A stretch of DNA of 63,233 bases, filler included, from Atractiella rhizophila (lineage: Eukaryota), in assembly GCA_021432655.1 (NCBI GenBank). It is 4 parts of 3 records of this genome, joined end to end, with 100 filler letters (N's around TTAATTAATTAA, not from the genome) between each part and the next. Parts side by side here need not be neighbours in the genome. Positions count along the whole stretch, not along the records: positions 37,160 to 62,041 come from MU271618.1; 3 more parts are not named here. One strand, written 5' to 3'. The notes beneath the pieces were generated by a model. It did no database searches. It had not been told where the DNA came from and saw only the letters and a program-made list of their open reading frames with translations. The position numbers were made by a program, and so were the translations under genes. The stretch's first letter is position 1. The number at the start of each line of letters is the position of its first letter. This document shows positions 12,555 through 62,141 of the stretch, in pieces.

Positions 12555-12654
12555 NNNNNNNNNNNNNNNNNNNNNNNNNNNNNNNNNNNNNNNNNNNNTT
12601 AATTAATTAANNNNNNNNNNNNNNNNNNNNNNNNNNNNNNNNNNNNNNNNNNNN
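12555..12654. other. Artificial contig spacer (44N-TTAATTAATTAA-44N)
   Basis: Stop codons in all six frames; genes on both sides are cut mid-CDS. Confidence 0.97.
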
Positions 12655-37059: not shown

Positions 37060-37159
37060 NNNNNNNNNNNNNNNNNNNNNNNNNNNNNNNNNNNNNNNNN
37101 NNNTTAATTAATTAANNNNNNNNNNNNNNNNNNNNNNNNNNNNNNNNNNNNNNNNNNNN
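37060..37159. other. Artificial contig spacer (44N-TTAATTAATTAA-44N)
   Basis: Same layout as the other two spacers. Confidence 0.97.
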
Positions 37160-40915: not shown

Positions 40916-41405
40916 TGTCAGGCTTGCCCCTACGCATTACCGAAATGCACCATCTGAAGTCACGTGACCCACTTTACCATGCCATAGGACCACGCGCCTG
41001 CCCATCGCCGCTTTGCTCACGTTCTCGCTGATCGCCGCCTTCCCCTGTCTCACACGAATCGCCGCTCAGCAAACCTTATACATTTCGCCGGTCTGCACCG
41101 TCTCCATTATTGCTTTATTGTCCTTTCTCACTTGTACTGCTCAGTATGTCTTATTTCCGAGTTTTCCTTTTATTGCTTTCCTGATCTAGCTATCTTACAT
41201 GTTTCAAGAAACTTATGATACAGTTTATGGCAGTGCTTTTACATATGTATATATACATCGAGATGTAGTGGTGGTGACCTCAGAGTATTCTCTTAGGTTT
41301 ACCTCCACTACAGGTTAGTCTTCTCATGCCATATTATTCCCTTAGGTTTACCTCCACTACAGACGCATCGCCTATCGGCGACCGCACATAGTGTTAGCCC
41401 TAACA
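40916..41405 (+). mobile_element. LTR (~490 bp), probable 3' LTR preceded by a purine-rich tract
   Basis: Starts TGTCAGG, ends CCCTAACA (imperfect inverted termini); agaaatttggggggtgt immediately upstream; 3' half homologous to 47195-47618 and 47863-48349. Confidence 0.85.
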
Positions 41406-42488
41406 CGGTGTTGCCTCTGTGGAGCATGTGCTTGCTGCTGCTGCCGAATCTCACGGGTCAAATGTTGAGGAGGTGTAGGTTGTGTAAGCTGAAAGCACTG
41501 AGGTAACCCTGCAGCATGCCTCTCTGAATGCCGGGGAGGATCAATGGGGCTGTCTTCTCGCCTCCGCTGCTGGGCATGAATTCGTGTCTCAGCACCTTTT
41601 TTTGCTTGGGACGGGGCATAATGAGTCTACTTGGCCATCAGAAGCACGTAAGCGGCGATATTTCACTTACATATCAGTCCTTTCCTTCCCTGGCGGAATT
41701 TGGTTTATTGTGGGGCTGCTGCGGCAGAATTGCAGGGACAGTGGTGGCTATTTCCCTGCTTTCAAGGGTTCGAGTCCAGTACAAAATGCATTTTTTCAAC
41801 CCTTTCAGAATAAAATTTCCTTGCAGGTTCAGAAAGGGGCAAGCATATGGGTTATGATGGTATAATTCATTTCATTCTATTGTGCTTGGTGTGGGAGGTG
41901 TGAGGGCTCAAAAGTGCGTCTTATGACTCACGCCAAGAAACCCAACGCTCTTAGAAGAATAGAAGAAACACAGAGGTGTCTTGATGACCGCCGATGATGA
42001 TGACTAACAAACGTGACAGATCTCGGTAGGCATGTGCTGGATGCTGAGGAGAGACGAGTAAGAAATGGTACAGAGTGCATTAGAAAAATAGAAGGGCAAT
42101 TTTTACTATCTCCCATTGAAGGGGTAAGCCTCTCATCATATCGAAAAGAAAAGAGGTTGGAGGACTATTTTGTGCCTTTTGCATCTCAGTCAAAAAGTTT
42201 GCTTGCAGTGTTCAAGTTATATGCAAGAGGTCAACTTGAAACCTGGCGGCCTGAAGCTTGAAGAGCCATGAGGCAAACTTGTCAAGCAGGTTTGATGTTT
42301 GGCCCAACTCCTACTGGTGTTAATGCCCTTCAGCTTCAAATGCTGCAGCCTTCATAAAGGCTAACAAGCTTGATTAGAAATCCAACTTGATGTTGTCCAT
42401 AATGGTGTCTTCACTATTTTTCCTGAGTGGATATTCAGGTTTGGGTCCTCAAATATTCACAAGTTAACTGCTCCATTTGGGATACTAT

Positions 42489-42557
42489 TGTCAGGCTTGG
42501 TTCCATATACTACCGAAAATGCGCTTGCCTAGGTCATGTGACCTACTTTCCTACTTT
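42489..42557 (+). mobile_element. 5' fragment of the same LTR family
   Basis: tgtcaggcttgg...taccgaaaatgc...gtcatgtgacctacttt resembles the LTR start at 40916. Confidence 0.55.
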
Positions 42558-42857
42558 GCAGATTGCTGCCCTTACTAATTGCCTGTCAGGGTGGACATAA
42601 AGATGTGTGTGAATGTGATGTGTCAGATAGCATACCGTAAGGACAATGCTTAGCAGAAATCCTGACTACCTGAACTGTTGGAGATTAATGATACAATGAA
42701 GGGGAGAAAAGGAGATATATGTGCTGATGCCAATCTCAATTGTTTGTTTTGCGTTCCGGATGCCGGCCAAACTTGTGCACTTCAGCGCTAGCCTGGACTT
42801 ATAAACGTGACTCTTGATTTTGCTTTCTGTTTTCCCTAATCAAATATCGTTACTTTA

Positions 42858-42981
42858 GACTGGTGCGTTTTGAAATGAAAATAGTAGCTCCGTATCTTTG
42901 CTCACAATGTCTAATGTTCCCCAATCACATATAAGCAAATGTGAGTCGGAGCTACTATTTTCATTTCAAAACGCACCAGTC
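42858..42981. mobile_element. 124-bp MITE with perfect 35-bp TIRs and TA target-site duplication (Tc1/mariner type)
   Basis: gactggtgcgttttgaaatgaaaatagtagctccg at 42858-42892 and its exact reverse complement at 42947-42981; TA on both sides. Confidence 0.92.
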
Positions 42982-43160
42982 TAGTCATATGACCTACTTT
43001 CCTACTTCACAGGTCCATGCTCTTGCCAATCGCCGCCTTGCATATGCCTGCACTCTGCCCCACTCAGTATTGCGGTTTGCATAAAACATGCGACTCTGCG
43101 AAGTTGTAAGAACAAAGAAAGTAGCGTGAACCTTAAGCTCCACTGCGGAGTTTCGTCCAA

Positions 43161-44350
43161 ATGAGTCATGCTCTAAACATCTTCTCGCTTCTTCCTTGCT
43201 TGTGTTTGTTCGTTTCGCCCATTCTCCTTGTGCATTCTTTCCGCTCACCTTGTCCAATCGCTACGTCCTATTTCAAGCGTCACCCTCTTTCAGAAGACCT
43301 CAAGAAGCGGATTGGGGTTTGGGTTCAAGACCAAGGAAAGCCTGTCCTTCAGGCAGCAGAAGTTGCTGGTTGTGATAGAAGCACGGTTTATCGCATCCTC
43401 AAGAACTTCAGGCTTTATGGCAGCATGGACTGCCCTTCCCCTCACACTTCTGCCCGCCCACGTCTCCTCAATACTCCAGATATCAACTTCCTCATGTCTG
43501 TTATTCGTACAGATCCATCCCTTTACCTTGATGAGCTCCAAGACTGCCTTGAAGATCAACGGTGTGTCTATGCCTCGCTCTCCACCATCCACCGTACAAT
43601 CCATCATCTTGGCCTCACCCACAAACAGCTATCGTCGAGCCATCCAACGGAATGAGGTTTTACGGGATAATCACATCCTGGAGATGATGATGTACGCGAG
43701 GGAGCTGTTTGTCTGGTTGGATGAGTCGGGTTTTGATGATAACGATAGTAGGAGGGATTGGGGTTATGGTGCTCAAGGTCAGAGAGCTTCTTATAAGGAT
43801 TATTGGGGCCGAGGGGAGCGACTGGGCATCTGGCCGGCAATGGATTGTGGGGGTGTCTTCATTCACAAGATCTTCAAGGGACCATTGATATGGATAACTT
43901 TTCGGAGTTCCTGGTTGACTTGGTAAGTACTCTGCTATGTCTCCAACTATGTTATCCCCCATGGCTTATTGTCATTACCAATCCACACCTCAATCCGTAC
44001 CCACAAGCACGAAGCATAATCGTTTTGGACAATGCAGCTATTCATCATCATGACTTAATCTATCGACTTCTGGTTGAGTACAAAGGTAGTGCCTTCAATA
44101 TCCTCTCTACCCTTTGTAAGTATTTGCTGACCTGATTCTGGATTCAGGGTGTAAGCTCATTTACCTACCTCCCCATTCATCCGACCTCAATCCCATCAAA
44201 GAACTCTTTGCCTGTATCAAGAAATGGTTGAAGCGCTGGCATAGGGACACGCTCAACCTTGTGGATAAGGAGGATATCATTATGGATGCATGTGATGCTG
44301 TCAATGCAGAGTTGGTTGGAGGTTGGATAACAGATTCATTTTACTCATAA
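43161..44350 (+). pseudogene. Degenerate Tc1/IS630-like transposase (HTH plus DDE domain)
   Basis: HTH AAEVAGCDRSTVYRI, PSLYLDELQ..L, SLSTIHR, VWLDESG, IIVLDNAAIHH, YLPPHSSDLNPIKE (canonical NPIE changed); frameshifts near 43630 and 43885. Confidence 0.85.
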
Positions 44351-44703
44351 TCCGTGCGTATGCTCTACTTGCCTATCCCTCCGAGGTTCGATATTTTAGT
44401 CCTAAAATGCTGTTTGTTCCACATGAGGTGGGTAGCACTGCTTCCGAGGCTGAAGTATTGAAGTTGAAGCCACAAGCTGGCTTGTCTCTTGAATTCTAAG
44501 CCGTGTCACCAGGTTTCACTTCCTTCTGCTGTGACAACATGTTGCACCTATGAGAAGATGCAGGGAATGTTTGAATATGATCAATGGGTTTGCTTGACAA
44601 GTGGTCACCTCCTTTGAACATCAGTTCTCTGTTTGATCTCCCTATGGGATGATCACGCCTCCAAGCAACACAGGCAGTTGCTTGTCATGTTGCTGCCACT
44701 TGT

Positions 44704-46774
44704 TTGCATGCTATAAAGGCTCTGCTACAGTCATGTCAAAGCCCAAAAACGGCTCACAAATCTGACCAGTTTAACTCGGAAAATCCAAATCATCAGGCCC
44801 AGATAGCTCGCATTCCTGAACAGGTCAGGCAGGCGGTGTTGGAAGCCTGGATGAGTTTGGGAAGAGCTCCAACGAATATGGAGGTTTCTTGCCTTGGTCA
44901 TAACAGTAGTGACCATGAACAAAATTTTGTATATGCTAATCCTTTCAAGGAAACAATGGGTCTTGCCGATAGTGAGTTTAATGTCTATTTCACTGATTTG
45001 GCATATTATCTTACAAGTTATGGTTTCAGTTGCAACAGATCCAACTTATCTGGCAACGGGAATGACACCTGGTGCTGTTCTAGTTCTTTCACATCACAAT
45101 CAACCGATTAACTCGTATTTAACAGTTATGTATAATTGGCATCGAGCCATGAATCCACAGACAACACTTATGGATGCTCCACCTCCTTCATATGGTGTTA
45201 TTGATAAAGGGAAAGGCAAGTCTTTATCTGAGACAGTCACGGGAAGATTCACAGACTGTTGGATTAGATGAATTGACTTTAGAGTGGGTGACAATGGTCC
45301 AAGCTTCGGCATCAGGTCCGCCCGCACGTGTACCTGTTCCGAAGCCAAGGACTGAGAGTCGTCCATGGCTAATCAATGTCGCTGCATATGGATATTTGAG
45401 CTTTTTAGAAGCTCTGCTTGCAAAGCTTAACATAGGAGACCAGTTTGCCACTTTGACGGAGGAGAATTGGTATGTTTTCAAGTGGCATACTAGTGTTAGG
45501 TTTGTAGACTTTACTTTGCATAGACTTTGATCAGGGCTAATCTATGAAACAGAAGACTAGGCCCAAGACCTGTACTACGGAAGAAGACTTTGGTATCTTT
45601 CAACGAGATGTCTTCCTGAATCCAAAGAAATGTGTCGTCATACTCCACCGTGCAGATTTGGAGGCCTTGGAACAGCCTACACCGGTTTGTTTTTGTCTTT
45701 TCTACATGGGTAACCTTTGACTTGCCACCTTTCACTAGACCCCCACACCCATCGCTGGAGTAGCTGCTGTGGGTATATTTCCTTCCGATGTCTACATTTT
45801 GACGTCTTGATAGGGGGATATGATTAGAGGAGGAAGAGATCCACTTGCGACTGAAATGCTTCCCGGAGGTGCATTAACGTGAGTAAGTGATGCTTATGCT
45901 TTCTAATGTACTTCAAGTTATTGATGCCATCTTTCAGGTTCCTAACGGTGAGGATGTTCCTCCGAGGGGAATTGCACGAGCTGAGGCTGTTATTGTGGCG
46001 AAGAAACACTTTGCTTGCCAGGAACATGGCAACTGGTGCTTTGTTGATGGGGATGGGAGACATCATCCTCTGTCAGAGAATGATGTTCGTTTGTTTAGTA
46101 TTCATAAGGTGTGTTCCTCCTTTGTCTGTAAGGTCATACGGTTTGTTGAATATGAATTGGAAAGGTGGACCGTGGCACCTTTACTGAGCTGCCCCCCGGA
46201 CTTTTAGGAGATCGTCTTCTAGATCGACATGCTCAAGGAGGCAGGCCAAAGGCAAGAGGAAGAACAGGACCAGGTCGCGCTCCACCTGAAAGTGCTGCCG
46301 ACATTGTGAAAGCTATTATCGATACTGCCGGCCTTGCTGACTATTCAACGGCCCCTGTCCACGCATGCTGAGCAAACAAATGTCATGCAGCTGGCCTCCC
46401 CTCCAAGAACACCTTCCAACATCAAACAAGCTTGCAGTCCTACGCTGGCCCTTTCCCCATCTACGGTGCAGCCTCGACTTCTTGATCTTCTGCACCTCCT
46501 CCGAGCTTTTGACCAGACACAACCTCAGTCCTCAGCTCAAGCAGCAAGTGGTGGCCGTTACACGAGCTTGTTCGAGGTGATAAGAGAGAGAGGGGTGATG
46601 TTTGAGGGATTGATCTAGCTAGGAAATGGAGATGATGGGCTGCTCGACACCTTGAGAGATTTGGGGTTTAATTGGGCAGAACTCAGCTTAATTGCGGAGT
46701 TTTCAGTGTCTTGCTGGGAATCTAAGAGAAGACAGAGGATGTGCAGTGGTTCAAAGAGGGCTCGAACGGAATAG
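44704..46774 (+). pseudogene. Degenerate multi-exon gene with a Cys/His motif, probably transposon-associated
   Basis: Spliced pieces including HFACQEHGNWCFVDGDGRHHPLSENDVRLF..GTFTELPP; in-frame TAG at 46616-46618 followed by continued open frame to 46774. 5' boundary uncertain. Confidence 0.45.
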
Positions 46775-47194
46775 GAGGATGGGGGATTTAGTCAGGTCTT
46801 GCAACATTGGCTTCACTTTGGGGCACTTTGTAGAGTGCTAATAATCAGCATATTATGATCATTGCTGTTCCGTATTAGTTGGCACAACGGATAGGACAGG
46901 CTGTGGATTGAAGTGATGATGAACATTGTTCGACACTCTGCGAGAGGAATGCGGAGGAAACTGTGGAGGAAGTTCCTCCAAAATGCAGAAAAAACTCTGA
47001 GGAATATGGAAACAGCGGCGGGCCGAGCATCCAGCGCTAGCACCAACTCTTTGAAAGTTGCATGTTTTATGCAAACGGCAATATATCCCATTCATTTCAC
47101 TGGTCTACACCGTTACCGTTTTCATCTTGACATCCTTTTGTATTGCTCTTCTCATCATTCTTACTTCTGATTATTTCCTCTGTTGCCTTCCCGA

Positions 47195-47618
47195 TGTCAG
47201 GTTTGCACAAATCAGCACCTGTTCGCCGGATTGTGTCTCCTATTGCCCATTTGCGTTTCCCGCAAATCAATGCCCGGTCGCCCGTTTGCCTTCTACGCAA
47301 ATCGGCACCCAGTCGTCACTCTGCGCTCACATCACTACTTAGTCCAATGTGTCTATTCTCCTCTTATTAAACCTGCATAATCCTATTGTCACTTTCCTCT
47401 TTTGGTTCTCGTACATGTTTCGTCTGCTCTCCTCTACATTTTGTAGCAGTGTGATTACTGCTTGTATATAGATCAAAGAGTAGTGGAGGTGACCTTAGAG
47501 TATTCTCCTAGATTTATCTCCACAACAGGTTAGTCTTCTCATGCCTATCATGCACTTAGGTTTATCTCCATACAGACGCATCGCCCATCGACAACTGTAC
47601 ATAGTGTCAGCCCTAACA
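47195..47618 (+). mobile_element. Solo LTR with 5-bp TSD (cccga/tccga)
   Basis: TGTCAGG...CCCTAACA; shares gacc.tagagtattctc, caggttagtcttctcatgcc and cagacgcatcgcc blocks with 40916-41405. Confidence 0.88.
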
Positions 47619-47632
47619 TCCGATTCAGTTAT

Positions 47633-47832
47633 CCTACATGTTTCATACAACCTACTTTACAGATTATGGTACTGCCCCAACACATATATATAAATTAAGA
47701 TGTAGTGGTGATGACCCTAGAGTATTCTCTCTCCACTACAGGTTGATCACTTCATGTCATGATATTCTCTTGGGTTTATCTCCATCACAGGTACACCACC
47801 GATTGGCGACTGTAGATAGTGTCTGCTCTAAT
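47633..47832 (+). mobile_element. Degenerate 3' half of the same LTR family
   Basis: acatgtttca...atatatata...gatgtagtggtgatgaccctagagtattctc...atagtgtctgctctaata. Confidence 0.7.
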
Positions 47833-47862
47833 AACTATTTGTTTTATTCAGAACCGATGTCT

Positions 47863-48349
47863 TGTTAGGGCTGACAATATGTATGGTCATTAACTGGTAT
47901 GTGTCTGTACTGGAGATGAACCTAAGAGCATAACATGATATGTGAAGACTAACCTGTAGTAGAGATGAACCTAAGAGAACACTCTGTAATCACCTTCACT
48001 GCTATCCAATCTATATACAAGCGGAATAACACTGCTACAACGTTAGAGGAGAGTGTATGAAACATGTAGAGAATCAAAAGGGAAAGTAACAGTGGAATTA
48101 TGTGGATCGATAAGAGGAGAGAAAATAAAATTGCACCAAGTAGTGATGGGAGCTACAAACCAGCGATGGGAGTGCAAATAGGCGAATGAGTGCCGACCTA
48201 CACAGAACACAAATGGGTGATGGGAGATGCAAAGTGGGGATGGGAGTGCACACGGATGAATTGACGACAATTCACATAGAATCTGAATGGGCAATGGGAG
48301 ATGCAAATCGGTAAACAGGTGCCAATTTACATGAGATGTAATCCTGACA
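47863..48349 (-). mobile_element. Solo LTR of the same family, inverted
   Basis: tgttagggctgaca at 47863 and cctgaca ending 48349 are the reverse complements of the family termini; no TSD match seen. Confidence 0.8.
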
Positions 48350-48562: not shown

Positions 48563-51500
48563 TCAAAACCTTTTTGTAGCAGGTTCTTGTGTAACACCTG
48601 CTACTTTTTCTGCCTGTCCAATTCTATCCAGCAAATTGTCACAGTCTTCAATGTCTGAAGCTGCACAGCATTCTGTGTAAAGCTGACAAGCTTTCACAAT
48701 TTCCTCCCTCGCTTCAGCATAATTTGACAATAGGAAGAGTTGTTGTGCCATTCTCTCTCTGCTGAATGCCTCCAAGTAGCCACCCACTGTCTGACTCACA
48801 ATGATTGCTTGCTTATAAAACTCAATCGCCTTCATGAACTGAGAGTCCTGAATGAGAGCAGAAGCAGTGCTGTAGAGACAATTGAGTTGACCTCCCACAT
48901 CTTCAAGGGCTAAATAGAGCTGCTTTGCCTCCTCAAACAGTTTCAGTGCTTCCTCAATCTTCCCGCGACGCTGCTTGATCTCCCCCATGCTGCGAATGCA
49001 GTGGGCCAGGCCTTGCCGATCTTCCACCACCAGATACAGCTGCTTTGCCTCCTCAAACTGTTTCAGTGCTTCCTCAATCTTCCCACGACGCTGCTCGATC
49101 TCCCCCATGCTGCGAATGCAGTGGGCCAGGCCTCGCCGATCTTCCACCACCAGATACAGCTGCTTTGCCTCCTCAAACTGTTTCAGTGCTTCCTCATTCT
49201 TCCCACGATGCTGCTCGATCTCCCCCATGCTGCGAATGCAGTGGGCCAGGCCTTGCCCATCTTCCACCACCAGATACAGCTGCTTTGCCTCCTCAAACTG
49301 TTTCAGTGCTTCCTCATTCTTCCCACGACGCTGCTCGATCTCCCCCATGCTGAGAATGCAGTGGGCCAGGCCTCGCCGATCTTCCACCACCAGATACAGC
49401 TGCTTTGCCTCCTCAAACTGTTTCAGTGCTTCCTCATTCTTCCCACGACGCTGCTCGATCTCCCCCATGCTGAGAATGCAGTGGGCCAGGCCTCGCCGAT
49501 CTTCCACCACCAGATACAGCTGCTTTGCCTCCTCAAACTGTTTCAGTGCTTCCTCATTCTTCCCACGACCCTGCTCGATCTCCCCCATGCTGCGAATACA
49601 GTGGGCCAGGCCTCGCCGATCTTCCACCACCAGATACAGCTGCTTTGCCTCCTCAAACTGTTTCAGTGCTTCCTCATTCTTCCCACAACCCTGCTCGATC
49701 GCCCCCATGCTGCGAATACAGTGGGCCAGGCCTCGCCGATCTTCCACCACCAGATACAGCTGCTTTGCCTCCTCAAACTGTTTCAGTGCTTCCTCATTCT
49801 TCCCACGACGCTGCTCGATCTCCCCCATGCTGCGAATGCAGTGGGCCAGGCCTTGCCGATCTTCCCACGACCGTGCTCGATCGCCCCCATGCTGCGAATA
49901 CAGTGGGCCAGGCCTTGCCAATCTTCCAACACCAGATACAGCTGCTTTGCCTCCTCAAACTGTTTCAGCGCCTGTTGTAGGTTGCCCTTCTGTCGAAAAC
50001 ATAATCCAAGAGCCCTCTTCAATTTTGCTGTGGCTGCTGGGGGTGATGTAACCTTCTTGCAAGACAAAGCACACTGAATCAATGCCACTGAGAGGAGGCT
50101 TTGAAGATGCAGAAAGTTCCATATTTCTACAATGAAATTGAATCCTGTTGTCGGATCTTTGAGATGTTTGAAAGAAGCTAGCAATATGCGTTCAAGGTTT
50201 GGAAAATCGTTGCGAAAAGTCAACAGTCCGATCCGTTCAGCATCATCTTCGAAACGTCGAAAATTTTTACGAGCCTTCTCAATCAGACCTTCAGTTAACG
50301 GTTCGAGCGATAAAGTGGTGACTTTGAAAGGAGGAAGAGGACCCAACACCCAAACGGTTGATATATTCACGAATCGGGGCCAGCATGCGCAATCGTGATG
50401 TGTGTGTAAGAATATCATCAACATTTTCAGCAAGTCCGACCTTTAAGATTGAGGTGACGAGCACAGCAGAATCCTCTGAATGGGGAAGGCTGGAGTTATT
50501 GCCAAAGGCGATAATGTCGTCAGCCAGAAGACCATCAGGGGTCCACGATAGAAGGGCAAGGATAAAAGCACTGAGGTCCTCATTCTTCTTGACCAGAGGC
50601 GAATCGAACGAGAAGGAGATCGAAGTTGCCAGAGTGTGCGTCTCTTCGCTGTCTTCGTTCCAGAGTACGTTCGTTTTCTTTACCTCCCATTCACCCACCA
50701 AAACCCTTAGCTCCTTGGTGGATTCTTCATTCGCACGAAGAATGAAGAGCTTGATAGACAAGGCATGACGATCCAGCTTGGCGACGATGTCTTCGACTAA
50801 CTGGTCATCACCCTGGCGATATCCTTTTCTGCCCACGTACATATATTCAAACATACCAAGCGCGCCGACGTCGCTCAAGCCTCCAATCACTAGTTCTTGA
50901 AATCTCACACCTTTCGAGTTCACACGCTCAACTTGATGGCCTCGATGTACTACAACGAGAATAGAACCAGAAGGGCATTGTCTGGAAAAGAAAGCCTGGA
51001 AGAATGGCTGTAGGTTATTCTTGTCAGCCCGTGCAGGGGTCTCAAAGTTATCGAGGATAAGGAGACACTTGTGAGTGTTGAAATAGCGTGTGATAGCAGT
51101 AAGCTCATCCTCGCCAGGCGGAGGAGCTAATCCAAAAACTTCCTTGCAAAGGTTGATCGAGAGCGAGGAGAAGTCGGAGAAAGCGTCGCACCGTGCCCAA
51201 AAGCGAAAGTCTGCTTCCTTGCCATCCGTGGCGGTCCTGAATGCGTTTTTGATTTTGTCTGCATGTAGGACTTCCAGTGCAACGGTAGATTTGCCATTCC
51301 CTGCACCACCAATGATAGCAAGGTGCTTCTTGTCGGTAAGGATGAATTCTATCGCTTTCTCAACCTCCTCTTCTCTTCCGTAACAAGCTGCTAGAGGAGG
51401 TAAAGCAATCTTCCTGTGCACTGCGACACGATCTTTATGGTCTACAGAGCAGAACGTTAGCATACAATCACCAGCGACGAAGAATATACCTTTCGCCAGC

Positions 51501-53121
51501 GATTGAGCAACGCTCATCACTTCATGCTTCATCGCTTCCATGTAGGCCTTCGTACCGCCTACCGCATCATTCTTTCGCCACCACTCCTGCCACTTGAATT
51601 CTCCAAACGTATCGACCGAGAAACGATGGTAACAATGCCCCGTCCTCCGCTCTTGCATCATCACCTTCACCTCGTTCGAAACCCTTGAGCAATCCATGAC
51701 TATTGCCTCCAATGCTCGCTCAACATCATCTCGAGTGTGGCCCAACTTGATGGCAGGCGTAATGCCAGAACCGAGGGACACAAGACAGGCGATCTCAATA
51801 CTGGATCCCCAAATTCGCTTCGCTTCTTCAACAGCTATCGCTGTAGGATTGTCGCGACCTACGTTAACGTAACCAGTGGAATCCATGTTGATGGGAGGAA
51901 AGAAGGGAGGACGGGCAGCGGTCGCTCTTGCAGCTTCCCAGACCTTGTACGTGGGAGCAGGGAAAAATGGAGATGATGAAGCACCAGGAATATTGTAGGT
52001 GCGCATCTCCGTGGAAACGGTGACATTGGCCTCGTAGGTAGAAACGACAAAAGTCTTGCATCTGACTTGCACAGAATCATCTTTCATGGATAGCGATTTC
52101 GCAGAATCCTGAGAAGAGTTCATATGCCGCTGGATGATAGTGATGAAAGTTTCTTCAAGCTTTTCCGCTGAGTAAGCGTACTCGCCATTTGAGAGGGAGT
52201 CCTTTTCTAGAAAAACTTTCAGGGTGATCTCTTCATATGCCGCAATGCATTGGCGAACGGTCATTCCGAGCCTCCCAAGCATAAGTGCGATCCATCCCCC
52301 AGTGGAAGTTCCACAAATGAGATCAAATATATCGCAAGGACGAAGGTCCTCGCCTTCCGGCACATCGAGAAGTTGTGCAGCTTGAAGCATGATCTGTTCC
52401 AGCATGTATGGAGCGGAAAAGGAACGGATGCCTCCATTGTCGATGCAAAGGATCCGCAATCCCTTAGGATTCGCTTTCTTGATGTTCTCGGCAACCGCAA
52501 AGATCTTGACAGGATGATCCGCAGACATGTAGGTGAAAGCAGGATTGGATGGTAACGGCACAAGTTAGAAGGGCAGGGTTGGGCCCGATTGTGGAAAATT
52601 GAGGAAAGTGTGAGGTTTAAGTCAGTTCTAGCACCAATCCCATCAGGCTGGCTCCTGAGCGTTACGCGGATAAATGAAGCAAAAAGGACAGATATATCGG
52701 TATCCTTTGATCCCTTGTCATCGCATTCAAGGGTTACGATCAATGATGTGGGGAACACAGACGCAACTTGCAAGCTCGACAATCAATTTGTTTTCCCCCG
52801 TGGTTCTTGTTCTGATGGATCTTCCCCTTTCGCGGGCGTCCGTGTCAGAAATACGTATATCGCAGCAAATAAACTGAAGAACGCTAAAAGGTGGCTACTT
52901 TTCTGGTATGGAGACAAGTTCAACATCAGGTAGATATTTCACCCTTCTCTATGAAAGAAAATGCGACAGGGCAACATCTCGATACCCAATACTCAAATGA
53001 TGATTCAACTCACAAGGATGTCTTTGACTGTCTCGCTGGACGTTAAGCTGCGCTGTGATAAGACAGGTTCCTGCTCTTGGATTCCCAACCGTCCGCCTTC
53101 CGATTGGCTGTATTTGGTCAT
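48563..53121 (-). CDS. NLR-like protein: patatin-like phospholipase, STAND P-loop NTPase (NB-ARC-like), TPR array; frameshifted at ~49860 as assembled
   Basis: LRILCIDNGGIR, FDLICGTSTGG, WEAARATAA; Walker A GGAGNGKST, Walker B LLILDNFET, MLAPIREY; 40-aa TPR repeats. Introns near 51443-51490 and 50291-50349; first exon from 53121 is tentative. Confidence 0.88.
48918..49968 (-). repeat. Tandem array of ~8.5 near-identical 120-bp units encoding 40-aa TPR repeats
   Basis: Full units begin at 49021, 49141, 49261, 49381, 49501, 49621 and 49741; consensus GLAHCIRSMGEIEQRRGKNEEALKQFEEAKQLYLVVEDRR. Confidence 0.97.
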
Positions 53122-54343
53122 TAGTAGGGTCAGTGTTGGATCAATGTCTGTCTGGAGCCTGATTTGAGCGCCCGAGCGCTCAAGCTTGCACAAAAATGGA
53201 GAAAGGATTATCTGGCCTACTACGAAAGAAGGTGTCCAAGTCAGCAATCGTTGAATTTCAAGCCCAAATCGAAGTCGTGGCCATTGGTCTGAGGTTTGTG
53301 AACAGTTATTCACTTTCTGGTGTCATTTCTCTCCCTGACAAATCCTAGAGAGCAGCTCATCTGGTCGACAGCTTTCTCCTCACCCTTGAGATGATACCAT
53401 CCATCTCCACAATCATAGATAAACACTATGATCGAAAATTATTCTTTTTCCACGATCTTGTAACGGAGCAAACATTTCTGTTTAACCTGCCGCTACTTCT
53501 CGAGGAAATAGGCACAGCAGCGAGTACACGAGACAGGATTTACGTCAATGTATCATCAGCGACTCCCACACTGGTTAGTGTTGACTGTTGCATATCAAGT
53601 TGGAGAACCCACGGCTGCACACCAGATAGAAACTCCAGCTTTCCTCTTGACAACCCTCGCCAACCTCCACGAACTACTAAAGGAAGTACCAACCTCACAA
53701 TCCTATGTCATCGTCACTTCCACCTGGCAAAATGATGCCATGTTGTTCTCCCCAGTTTCGAGTATTTCTCCATCCGCACTCGTCTACGGCGACGACGGTG
53801 TGAAAGGAGTCTACCCACTGCGACGTGCCTGGCCGTCCCTAGCCGGCTGGCTGCTCTCCTACTTAGTCATCTACGTCCAACTGCCCAATTCAACATTGGG
53901 AGATCCGACGGGTAAATTTGTTCGGAATGAAGAGGAAGAAGGTAACTGCCTTGGCACAGAGGAGCTGTGGCTTGTGCGAGGCGAATGGCGGTCTGTCCCT
54001 TCTCACTTCGTGGCTTCCTTGCATTAGATGGGTGGGATTGTTGACAAAATTGCAGCGGGACACAATTCCTCTCTTTCTCTGTGCCTGCTCGATTGATTCC
54101 TCGTTCGAAAGTGCTCGAGATTGCACACCACCTAACGTTGAGGTTCAAGTCTAGGTTGCTAGAGAGAGATGAAGAGGGTGATGGAAGCCTCAGGGTATGG
54201 GTTCAGGATGAAGTAGCGGTGCTGGATCGTGTTGCTTTGTAAATAGTGACTTAAAACGAAACTGCGTTGAATTACTCGAAGACGTAGGAATGAATAGATA
54301 GATGAGATCGTCCTTCCTACATTGCCAATGCCAACAAACAAAT

Positions 54344-55686
54344 TCAGAATGTCGAGATACTATTCCAAATTGTCAGCAAATTCTCATCGTTCGATAAGAA
54401 ACGAAAGTAGGGAGAGACCCACTAATCACCAATCCTGTCCCTCGCATCCTGAGCGATACACTCTGCGATCCACCCAATACTCCTAATCTCCTGCTCCTTT
54501 AATTTGAAGAAGCTGTAAAAGACGCCATATTGGAATTGCTGGAGGAAGCTGAGTTTGTTCAGGTGAACTTCATATTTGAAGAACTCCGTCTCGAGCTTCT
54601 CTGCCTCCTGCGAATATTCCCCTTCATGCCCGCCTCCAGAACTGGAACTCAAAAACTCCCTATACTCAGGAATATTATCCAACACCTGTTTCACCTGTTC
54701 CAGGTCCTCCGCTCTCGCCAGGGCATTGTTCCCTTCAGGATAAAGGCGTCCAAAATCCGGAAACAAGTTGGCGCGCTGTTCCTTGCTCAAACCAGTCCCG
54801 AAAGAGTTGATGGTGATGTTGATAGACCTCCGGTCGGCTTCGAATTGGAGGATTTGAGACATGACGTCGGGGGTGGGAGAAGGGAGAGTTTGGCAATAGG
54901 AGTGAAAGTCGGAAAGGTATGCACTGTAGAGGGTCGAGCGAATGATCTCGATGTTCAGGTCGTCCAAATCGGTGGCTGAAAAACACTCTTGGAAATAGGG
55001 TGCTACGTGACCTCGAATCATTTCTGCAGTCCAAACAGCAACAGTGAGAGTGCGAACCTAAAGGCGTTTCAACTAGCACAGTGTTGTACAGCTCTTCCAC
55101 GTTAGTGGCCACGCAGAGAGCTGGCATGGAATCGAACATCCCCAGCGGGTGGCACCGCTCCAAGAGCTCATGAGTGTCCCGCTCGTGAAGGGTGCCTGTG
55201 ATGAGGAGGATGACCTGAACGAAGATCAGATTCTGCGCCTTCCAATGGACAGAGGAATCCGCACGTTGTCAATCATGTATGCGTAGCTGCTCGGCAAGCT
55301 CAGCTCTTGGTCCCAAATCCACAAAAGAGAAGAACGCACGTAATATACTCCAAGAACTTGGAGAGCGGCTCCACAGCATTACTCTTAATGTAATTGAACT
55401 CATCCACCATCTTCTGTGTCGCCTTCTCCGAAATGGTCGCGGTGGAAATGGGAGGGGGTTCATTAGCTAAGAAGTTCCCATAGTCTCTATTCACCACAGA
55501 CACCGCGTCACCATCACCAATAAAGGAGCGAAAGACGAACGTGGCGGATAACTGCATCTTGAAGTCCTCAATAGTCTCACATTGGCAGAGGTTCGAGTAC
55601 TGCCCCTGTGTCAACAACCCTGCTTTATAGCCTCGCACTATAGCCTCGAGGTAGCCCGACGAAGTGTTGAAGAAAAGCCCCTCCAT
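54344..55686 (-). CDS. VMA6: V-ATPase V0 subunit d, multi-exon
   Basis: MEGLFFNTSSGYLEAIVRGYK, ERCHPLG, DLDDLNIEIIR, FEADRRSINITINS, KLKEQEIRSIGWIAECIAQ. Confidence 0.96.
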
Positions 55687-59711: not shown

Positions 59712-60596
59712 TTATTCCTCTGGCTCGCTTTCAGGATCAGACTCAATTTTTCTCTTCTTTCGACCCCTCGTTGTCTTTTTTGCACCTCCGTTTGCCGTAG
59801 ACGTCTTTCCCGCTCCCACCGCGGCTTCTTCAGATTCGCCTTGATCACTTTTCTTCCTTTTGTTGGTCTTGGCTACCTTCTTAGCCTTCTTCTCCTTGAT
59901 TTTCTCTTCTTCCAGCCAGTCTTCCCAACCACCTTTGATCCCAAGGAGCTTCACGGCCTCGTATACGATAGGCTCGACGGGTTGGACTGACAAACGTCCT
60001 CTTTTGATCAGCGTCATGTCTTTTATTCCCGAGAGCATCGAGTCGCTCAAGTATGAGAGGGGTTCAGGAAGCGCAGAGAGTGCTGCGATGCTTTGAAGGA
60101 GTTTGAGGGATACTAGATGCGGCAAGCGCTCTTGGAATGCAACGTCCACCTAGAAATGGTTAGTGATTCACTGAAAGGGAGTGAATCAGGTACCATGAAC
60201 CACTTCGGGTTATCCTTGTCCGATTTCGCATCGTAGTATGGATGAGTCTCGTCGAACGCAGTGTGATCCACGTAGCCTTCCTTCGCAACCTCAGCCAGTG
60301 CCGCGACCCCTTCGAGAATAATATCAATATCCATTTCTAGCAGTCATCAAACCATCAAAATGCTTACCGGGTTCCTTGCAATTGCTGTGATAGAAGAGTA
60401 TGCCGTCGCCAACTTTCATGTCATTCTTCATGAAGTTTTTCGCTTGAGCATTGCGAACGCCATCCCAAGGCGAGACACCAAGCGTTTCAAAATGATCGAC
60501 CGAGAAGGCGACGTCCTTGCCCTTTACTATTCTAGACTCCGGTTCTGCTTTCATGAGCCAATAACGGCGAGCTGGTGTTGTGTCAGAGTCTGCCAT
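59712..60596 (-). CDS. EVE-domain (thymocyte nuclear protein 1-like) protein
   Basis: YWLMKAEP, WDGVRNAQAKN, FYHSNCKEPG, HPYYDAKS...PKWFM, RGRLSVQPV; basic C-terminal tail. Confidence 0.9.
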
Positions 60597-60842
60597 TTTC
60601 GCGGTAGCCGAAAGATGCTGCTGGAAACATCGTCAGTCATTGAAACTTGACATCTGTTGCTTTGGTCGTGTAGGTAGTTAGAGAGAGAGTGAAAGCCGAG
60701 ATGACAAGGGAAAGACAATGGCGAGAACAAACAAATCCTTGTACAAAGAGAAAATTCATTGAGTAAACATCATATCCTTCCCAACAGTGATTTTCACCTA
60801 GCAACAGTGACAGCATAAAAGCTGCACAATCTAGGGTAATTC

Positions 60843-62041: not shown

Positions 62042-62141
62042 NNNNNNNNNNNNNNNNNNNNNNNNNNNNNNNNNNNNNNNNNNNNTTAATTAATTAANNN
62101 NNNNNNNNNNNNNNNNNNNNNNNNNNNNNNNNNNNNNNNNN
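62042..62141. other. Artificial contig spacer (44N-TTAATTAATTAA-44N)
   Basis: Same layout as the other two spacers. Confidence 0.97.

Follow-up and report, generated by a model that had tools for sequence, protein, structure and literature searches.

Fungal NOD-like receptors (NLRs) are numerous and, to our knowledge, almost none of them has been studied outside a few ascomycetes. Among the described systems, PLP-1 of Neurospora crassa, HET-Z1/PaPLP1 of Podospora anserina, Vic2 of Cryphonectria and Bcvic1 of Botrytis are built in the same order: a patatin domain, an NTPase of NB-ARC fold and tetratricopeptide repeats (TPR). As stated in the available parts of two reports (PMC12881547, PMC10197012), PLP-1-triggered death requires that the patatin domain be active. 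In the available part of a survey of fungal NLRs, patatin is almost always paired with NB-ARC, and NB-ARC favours TPR (Dyrka et al. 2014, PMC4986451); NB-ARC/TPR is also the standard pairing in the available part of a Sordariales survey (PMC12258605). Here we analyze an NLR-like gene of this order in the root endophyte Atractiella rhizophila (assembly GCA_021432655.1). The window, that is, the whole stretch of DNA that was analyzed, is 63,233 nucleotides long, and the gene lies on its minus strand between positions 48563 and 52528.

We consider it rather probable that this gene belongs to a lineage-specific, fast-turnover NLR family of A. rhizophila, the copy in the window being a frameshifted allele or a young pseudogene in a birth-and-death family, and not an orthologue of PLP-1. 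The architecture is a known one in a little-studied fungal lineage, and the window copy does not overturn current views. What the analysis adds is a corrected gene model, the NB-ARC-like character of the nucleotide-binding oligomerization domain (NOD), evidence against PLP-1 orthology and a catalytic Asp loss that appears to extend over the whole paralog clade. The patatin / NB-ARC-type / TPR design is thereby shown also in Pucciniomycotina, where it is probably built from a NOD-TPR module different from that of PLP-1.

Gene model and expression

The effector-NOD-sensor order proposed in an earlier note, which had been made from the sequence without database searches, was recovered by a Pfam profile scan. 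All three parts lie on the minus strand between 48563 and 53121, far above chance (Table 1). In the longest open reading frame (ORF), called frame A, Patatin (PF01734) reaches 56.8 bits (cut-off 27.7, E 4.4e-15) and NACHT (PF05729) 31.5 bits (cut-off 26.7). The first ATG of the patatin frame begins the peptide MSADHPVK..., and the A. rhizophila paralog P0012 starts at a comparable distance ahead of the conserved KGLRIL block. Colinear homology would give the ancestral design about 1,300 residues, made of a patatin-like domain, an NB-ARC-like STAND (signal transduction ATPase with numerous domains) NTPase, a helical linker and an array of near-identical 40-residue TPR units.

Evidence of expression came from four public sequencing runs, X1-X4 (X5-X16 had small shares), compared through contigs built from the runs and not through raw reads. 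X3 and X4 skip the introns of the neighbouring VMA6 gene and are of RNA type, while X1 and X2 keep these introns and behave as DNA; X1 differs from the window by about 0.4% in VMA6. Over 51755-52139 the X3 contigs match the window without a difference, and both RNA runs splice a 48-nt intron inside the gene. The NLR locus, or an identical copy elsewhere, is thus transcribed and spliced. This intron is in frame and stop-free, so that it is hidden inside the long ORF, and it explains why 16 residues are missing from the homologues at this place. The summed contig depth of X1 across the gene is 4-9 times that of the flank, a figure that is not usable as a copy number and was not used.

Table 1. 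Positions of the NLR-like gene, its parts and the adjacent transposon remains, counted along the window.
Feature	Position	Strand	Details
Whole NLR-like coding span	48563..52528	(-)	ATG 52528 to stop 48563-48565, across two frame breaks; from ORF frames, tblastn with P0005 and P0010, Pfam
Frame A, stop to stop	50291-52564	(-)	757 aa; Patatin and NACHT (Pfam)
Frame B, stop to stop	49783-50442	(-)	219 aa; weak TPR_12, E 3.7e-6
Third frame, stop to stop	48563-49954	(-)	463 aa; TPR_12, E 1.8e-45
End of upstream non-coding exon	53014..53121	(-)	upstream ORF with ATG 53121; GTGAGT donor from 53013, perfect match
Leader intron, 386 nt, GT..AG	52628..53013	(-)	RNA joint 53014/52627 in X3, 2 contigs, shorter side 27 letters, weak
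Leader part of exon 2	52529..52627	(-)	in-frame stops tga 52622-52624 and taa 52565-52567, both before the patatin ATG 52528
Patatin-like domain, Pfam match	51866..52450	(-)	GTSTGG kept, DGGG changed to DNGG, Asp column is Asn222
Internal intron, 48 nt	51442..51489	(-)	GTATAT...CTAAC...TAG; joint 51441/51490, X3 depth 68, X4 shorter side 78
STAND NTPase module (nucleotide-binding domain, helical domain 1, winged-helix domain), NB-ARC-like	50351..51439	(-)	P-loop GGAGNGKST 51287-51313, Walker B LLILDN
Frame break 1	50349..50351	(-)	GGG run, one extra G, which closes frame A at TGA 50291-50293 with 729 codons
Helical linker plus some 1.5 degenerate TPR units	49866..50334	(-)	readable in frame B only
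Frame break 2	49858..49885, junction about 49862	(-)	58-nt deletion; from direct DNA reading and tblastn frame change
Eight TPR units, 120 nt / 40 aa	48905..49864	(-)	unit starts 49864, 49744 ... 49024; 320 aa in total
Diverged C-terminal TPR-like cap and stop codon	48563..48904	(-)	ORF frames, repeat reading
tblastn match, P0005 1-470	51838-50351		frame -2
tblastn match, P0005 476-627	50334-49885		frame -3
tblastn match, P0005 656-992	49858-48848		frame -2
Transposon remains, downstream (3') of the NLR gene	41250..48022	(.)
Inverted repeats, 119 nt, 78% complementary	41250-41368, 47899-48017		flank the transposase
Degraded Tc1/mariner-type transposase	43137-44347		HTH_23, HTH_32 and DDE_3 over three frames
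Pair resembling a miniature inverted-repeat transposable element, 563 bp overall	47460-47542, 47940-48022		end some 540 bp away from the stop codon of the NLR gene

Two frame breaks

The earlier note had presented the three parts as one receptor gene. Patatin, NOD and TPR are indeed colinear, while two frameshifts make patatin-NOD and TPR untranslatable together as assembled. The tblastn match of P0005, a 1,235-aa A. rhizophila homologue, remains colinear through the two frame changes, interrupted by gaps of only about 5 residues, and the changes are therefore frameshifts and not introns. At break 1, reading the G run with two Gs gives the window text INRLVLGPLPPF / INRLVLGPLPPFKVTTLSLEPLT, in agreement with P0010 (INRLVRDSSPPF...) and P0005 (LNSLVSLSRPPF...). 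Break 2 is edged by two GGAAGAT microhomologies that differ in their codon phase within the repeat unit, and after it frame B ends at TGA 49783-49785. Since the two changes amount to -57 nt, the last frame is the same as the first; between the breaks this starting frame holds stops. As assembled, only a 729-residue patatin-NOD protein without sensor is possible, and no single translatable frame of the window copy holds the three domains. The separation of patatin and TPR on different transcripts, which the earlier note had named as one outcome that would speak against it, is thus encountered in part, because the two frameshifts split translation as assembled. Continuity of all three parts would apply only to the ancestor and to the variant form found in the runs.

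Two introns were considered in place of the frameshifts and rejected. A 49-nt GT..AG intron at 50322-50370 would remove the conserved REYINRL..PPF block, where tblastn and the homologues show colinear coding. A 41-nt GT..AG intron at break 2 would throw the repeats out of register, and among the RNA joints listed from the contigs none lies there, though contigs are no proof of absence. In the runs, a joint at which 49862 goes back 100, together with loose ends at 49846-49865, is uninterpretable in a periodic array and neutral on break 2.

The runs hold both forms of break 1. Contigs one base short at 50349 account for 439/1062 of the depth in X1, 239/601 in X2 and 10.2/14.3 in X3, and the form with the extra G is found in independent DNA contigs, with about 622/1062 of the depth in X1 and about 362/601 in X2. 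Both forms are consequently real molecules in near-identical material. Other variants were also observed in the contigs of X1-X3: a form that skips 205 nt in the patatin region (52019-52225) with ends GT..GG, so that it is not an intron, and a form one base short at 51706. These two indels imply that further broken copies or alleles of the family exist.

The strongest competitor of a defective copy is that the gene is intact in the organism, as a functional receptor with some 1,320 residues, and that both breaks are assembly artefacts, one being a homopolymer miscount and the other a collapsed or mis-joined repeat. We regard this as possible, with the balance clearly tilted against it. It would agree with a first break in which a run of Gs is just one base too long, the form without that base being present in two DNA runs and making up most of the RNA-run depth. 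It would also agree with the position of the second break, where a tandem array of 97% identity begins, and with the return to the starting frame after a total of -57 nt; moreover, the contig is a short one, and the window differs by several further indels from every covering contig of X1-X3. On the other hand, the extra-base form is also present in the independent DNA contigs, and a collapse normally drops whole 120-nt units, while here 58 nt are missing, bounded by a 7-nt microhomology. Furthermore, the 51706 indel and the 205-nt gap in other copies indicate that broken copies are common in the family. We therefore still think that the window copy is probably defective.

Several facts weigh against the reading of a frameshifted member of a turnover family. 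The source is a draft assembly of short contigs, so that both breaks could be mimicked by a miscounted homopolymer together with a repeat put together wrongly. The contigs cannot assign the intact form at 50349 to another allele, to a paralog or to the true sequence of the locus, and break 2 is neither seen nor refuted in reads. A complete annotated orthologue of more than 1,325 residues would fall outside the searched length range (416-1,325 aa). The Asp loss described below comes from alignments only, and another acidic residue could take over. Finally, sensing, oligomerisation and death are all carried over from other NLRs.

If an intact protein worked as PLP-1 and other NLRs do, its TPR array would bind a ligand or a guarded host protein. 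Ligand binding would free an ADP-locked NOD and allow its oligomerisation, and the clustered patatin-like domains might then act on membranes, leading to killing or signalling.

The TPR array

The sensor is highly repetitive. Tandem Repeats Finder reports a 120-nt unit over 48914-49865, in 7.9 copies with 97% matches and no indels, and the pairwise nucleotide identity of the units is 87-100% (mean 95%). In the first seven units, 9 of the 120 nucleotides are variable; they fall in 8 codons, and in 7 of these the encoded residue differs (positions 3, 4, 11, 15, 19, 20 and 23 of the repeat). The array thus has high internal conservation (HIC) as defined by Dyrka et al. (2014), with more than 85% identity over at least 100 aa, a property given for 21.2% of the TPR arrays of fungal NLRs in the available part of that work (PMC4986451). 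Podospora HET-E/D/R, the NWD family and the HIC class of TPR proteins share with it the small number of variable codons, almost all of them non-synonymous. Unlike what is described for NLRs with HIC repeats, the Atractiella unit has 40 residues, and recombination in the array would have led to an out-of-frame deletion. We find it plausible that the recombination-prone array itself gave rise to the 58-nt loss at break 2.

The central domain

The earlier note had left the identity of the central domain to be checked, and Pfam, a family profile and fold matches all agree on a STAND NTPase. Scanned alone (50351-51439), the NOD gives 33.4 bits for NACHT (cut-off 26.7), 17.8 for NB-ARC and 17.7 for nSTAND1. 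Its paralogs stay below every Pfam cut-off, P0010 with 23.5 bits for NACHT and P0126 without a NACHT match. The motifs of a 39-sequence family alignment are GxGGxGKT, LLILDNFE, a sensor Arg, PLAI and LAPIREY, the last two of which we take to be the GxP-like and MHD-like motifs of NB-ARC. Compared with solved structures, the family profile matches AfsR (E 5.7e-30, NOD and TPR over 690 profile positions), ZAR1 (E 9.5e-12) and NRC2a, and no NACHT NLR is found among its best 60 matches. The single NOD sequence gave nothing but P-loop noise against the PDB (best E 0.013, ABC transporters).

Further support was obtained from an AlphaFold model of the NOD (pLDDT 89.6). The top Foldseek match of this model is the NB-ARC of NRC1 (TM-score 0.71/0.74), followed by NRC2 and Apaf-1. 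In VIA-align it scores Z 24.4 with NRC2 (320 residues aligned, root-mean-square deviation 3.4), 23.3 with Apaf-1, 20.0 with PH0952 and 19.4 with MalT. The NACHT-type chains NLRP9 (15.7), NLRP3 (14.6), NLRP1 and NOD2 (13.5) remain at Z 13.5-15.7, compared with 23-24 for the NB-ARC type. Neither profile nor fold places the domain in the NACHT clade. According to these models, the central domain is best described as an NB-ARC-like STAND NTPase whose Pfam NACHT label is marginal, and with such a fold the gene fits the published patatin/NB-ARC/TPR pairing. The likeness to AfsR, MalT and PH0952, which are bacterial or archaeal STAND NTPases with TPR sensors, concerns the NOD-TPR profile and the fold; unlike the Atractiella gene they lack a patatin effector, and they are transcription regulators or proteins of unassigned role. 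For annotation, the case is a caution that a marginal NACHT label can mislead and that long ORFs can conceal in-frame introns and frameshifts.

A patatin-like domain without the catalytic Asp

The fold of the N-terminal domain is intact, as indicated by a model of residues 1-346 (pLDDT 87.2) that matches CapV, CapE, iPLA2-beta and potato patatin Pat17 at TM-scores of 0.68-0.74. The best of these matches are CapV, CapE and Pat17, with 0.70-0.74 over about 350 columns. The nucleophile elbow GTSTGG (GxSxG) is present, with Ser in this column in 218/256 homologues. The oxyanion motif DGGGxRG reads DNGGIRS in the window copy, so that the first Gly is replaced by Asn and the Arg is kept; this Arg is Cys, Ala or His in the paralogs.

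In patatins, the Asp of the Ser-Asp dyad is essential. MAFFT, a HMMER alignment and hmmalign with 256 homologues all place Asn222 of the window copy in the Asp column, which is occupied by Asp in 177/256 homologues (hmmalign). In the HMMER alignment to a solved CBASS (cyclic-oligonucleotide-based antiphage signalling system) patatin, YVNVG of the Atractiella protein stands opposite YVDGG. The site is covered by 14 of the closest paralogs; Asp is replaced by Ala, Thr, Leu or Ser in 13 of them, and P0012 is ambiguous. The paralog clade thus appears to have lost the catalytic Asp. Together with the change from DGGG to DNGG, this would make the effector a non-canonical hydrolase or a domain that works without catalysis. 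The patatin part is also the best conserved one among the paralogs, with 52-60% identity compared with 36-46% for the NOD, which suggests that it is still under constraint. Literature listings on patatin NLRs without the catalytic dyad and on A. rhizophila contained no publication about this family.

It is tempting to go further, and we do so tentatively, since the proposal seems to us less likely than its negation. The whole paralog family, in an early-diverging basidiomycete, would have kept the fold and the nucleophile and lost the Asp, with patatin still its best-conserved part. It would signal or kill without canonical lipase chemistry; it might bind membranes when it oligomerises, or serve as bait for a factor that targets patatin lipases. 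Its patatin would have been joined to a NOD-TPR chassis other than that of PLP-1, in an event separate from the ascomycete PLP-1 lineage. CapV and CapE, patatin effectors of CBASS, are activated in oligomers or filaments, judging from the titles of structure entries; unlike the Atractiella protein they are bacterial and activated by cyclic nucleotides. An expanded family that keeps the patatin fold after losing the dyad provides a natural test of whether NLR-triggered death needs lipase activity.

Paralogs and relation to PLP-1

At least 17 named proteins of A. rhizophila are related to the gene at 39-80% identity, and none of them has patatin, NOD and TPR complete in one protein. The end of P0008 (731 aa) comes right after the NOD, at the same place as the window copy; P0012 has patatin fused straight to TPR, without NOD; P0005 has only the patatin tail and carries a C-terminal BAG domain. 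These three are either rearranged genes or faulty gene models, and the family as a whole is either in rapid turnover or poorly modelled. Among proteins of 416-1,325 aa, none was found at 90% identity or more to the locus.

Of 8,000 candidates scored in a search with the NOD alone, 60 proteins had E <= 0.001. Four belong to A. rhizophila; among the remaining 56 are TPR NLRs of agaricomycetes (Mycena, Dendrothele, Gymnopus and others, with nSTAND1, NB-ARC or NACHT as their annotation) and metagenomic proteins, some of these with kinase or SIR2 N-termini; one SIR2 form is encoded by a Bacteroidota metagenome-assembled genome. These agaricomycete and metagenomic NOD-TPR proteins have 24-30% identity to the NOD and share GxGGxGKT, LLILDNFE, PLAI and LAPIREY with it. 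Unlike the Atractiella gene, none of the 56 has a patatin domain, which suggests that patatin joined the NOD-TPR chassis independently. In a phmmer comparison of the NOD with 314 gathered proteins, TPR NLRs without patatin were matched at 40-80 bits over the full NOD length, and P0196 was matched at 36 bits. Only one of 23 patatin and NB-ARC proteins was matched, and weakly, namely P0055 of Phenoliferia (18 bits), the only Pucciniomycotina member of a set that consists nearly entirely of ascomycete PLP-1-type architectures and does not include PLP-1 itself. The combination of patatin with NOD-TPR thus seems independent of the ascomycete lineage.

The likeness to PLP-1 and PaPlp1 drawn in the earlier note consequently holds for the architecture and finds no support in the NOD, its patatin-free nearest relatives or the catalytic site. 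That the gene is the Atractiella counterpart of PLP-1, HET-Z1 or Vic2, with a role in allorecognition in which it would guard the SNARE SEC-9 and cause death through its phospholipase activity, appears improbable to us. Such a role would suit the shared domain order, the NB-ARC-type fold and repeats of the quickly diversifying kind, and the PLP-1/SEC-9 system is reported, in the available part of PMC12881547, to have arisen repeatedly in fungi. However, the NOD lies much closer to patatin-free TPR NLRs than to the PLP-1-type set, and the Asp is missing and DGGG has become DNGG in a domain whose activity PLP-1 is reported to need for death. In addition, the Atractiella copy is frame-broken, its host is a Pucciniomycotina basidiomycete, and no SEC-9 was found nearby, in line with the earlier note: a SNARE domain was found in 0/139 ORFs of at least 70 aa on this contig and its neighbours, a scan that does not cover short exons or unlinked loci. 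In our reading of these sequences, the resemblance to PLP-1 is architectural only, and the gene is not a PLP-1 orthologue. Hardly credible, finally, is programmed recoding, by which one mRNA would give two products, the full receptor and an effector-NOD protein that lacks the sensor: break 1 does lie exactly at the NOD/sensor boundary and the two shifts do return to the original frame, but P0005 and P0010 read through the site of break 1 without a shift, the first shift required is a +1 at UUG GGU, where we know of no +1 signal, break 2 is plainly a 58-nt deletion inside a repeat, and the unshifted form exists in the runs.

Upstream leader

The earlier note had suggested further 5' exons, from 53121 onward, encoding an N-terminal extension. 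RNA provides a weak joint for an upstream exon (Table 1), and this exon proves to be a leader and not coding. The ORF from ATG 53121 runs for 36 codons up to the donor and then meets 'aac tga' in the next exon, forming a 37-codon upstream ORF (uORF); a further in-frame taa follows in the window. All the contigs of X1-X3 that cover 52567 lack one base there, by which the taa is gone and the stop near the exon start stays. An alternative 187-nt form of the leader intron occurs once in the runs. Neither residues 1-82 of P0001 nor residues 1-224 of P0003, which form the N-terminal extensions of these two paralogs, have a tblastn match in the window. The early stop after splicing and this lack of upstream homology led us to reject the coding extension in favour of a leader with a uORF, which may limit translation of the main ORF.

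Neighbourhood

The window joins at least four contigs. Each join (12555-12654, 37060-37159, 62042-62141) consists of 44 N, TTAATTAATTAA and 44 N, an artificial linker with stops in all frames, and genes that flank a linker are not genome neighbours. The contig of the NLR gene spans 37160-62041. The host is a basidiomycete, as had been supposed: a VMA6 exon is identical to A. rhizophila (Pucciniomycotina) at 194/194 positions. The gene does sit at the edge of a transposon island, beside a degraded Tc1/mariner-type element. On its other side lie a divergent gene without Pfam match and then VMA6 and PAT1, the two conserved neighbours on the contig that the earlier note had named.

The divergent gene, unannotated, occupies 53170-54360 on the plus strand, head-to-head with the NLR leader. 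Its exons match no Pfam family, and RNA contigs of X3 splice its GT..AG introns at 53291-53347, 53573-53624 and 53990-54054. Beyond PAT1, at 60116-60632 on the minus strand, the same contig encodes part of an EVE-domain protein in two exons, with Pfam E-values of 3e-20 and 2.5e-9.

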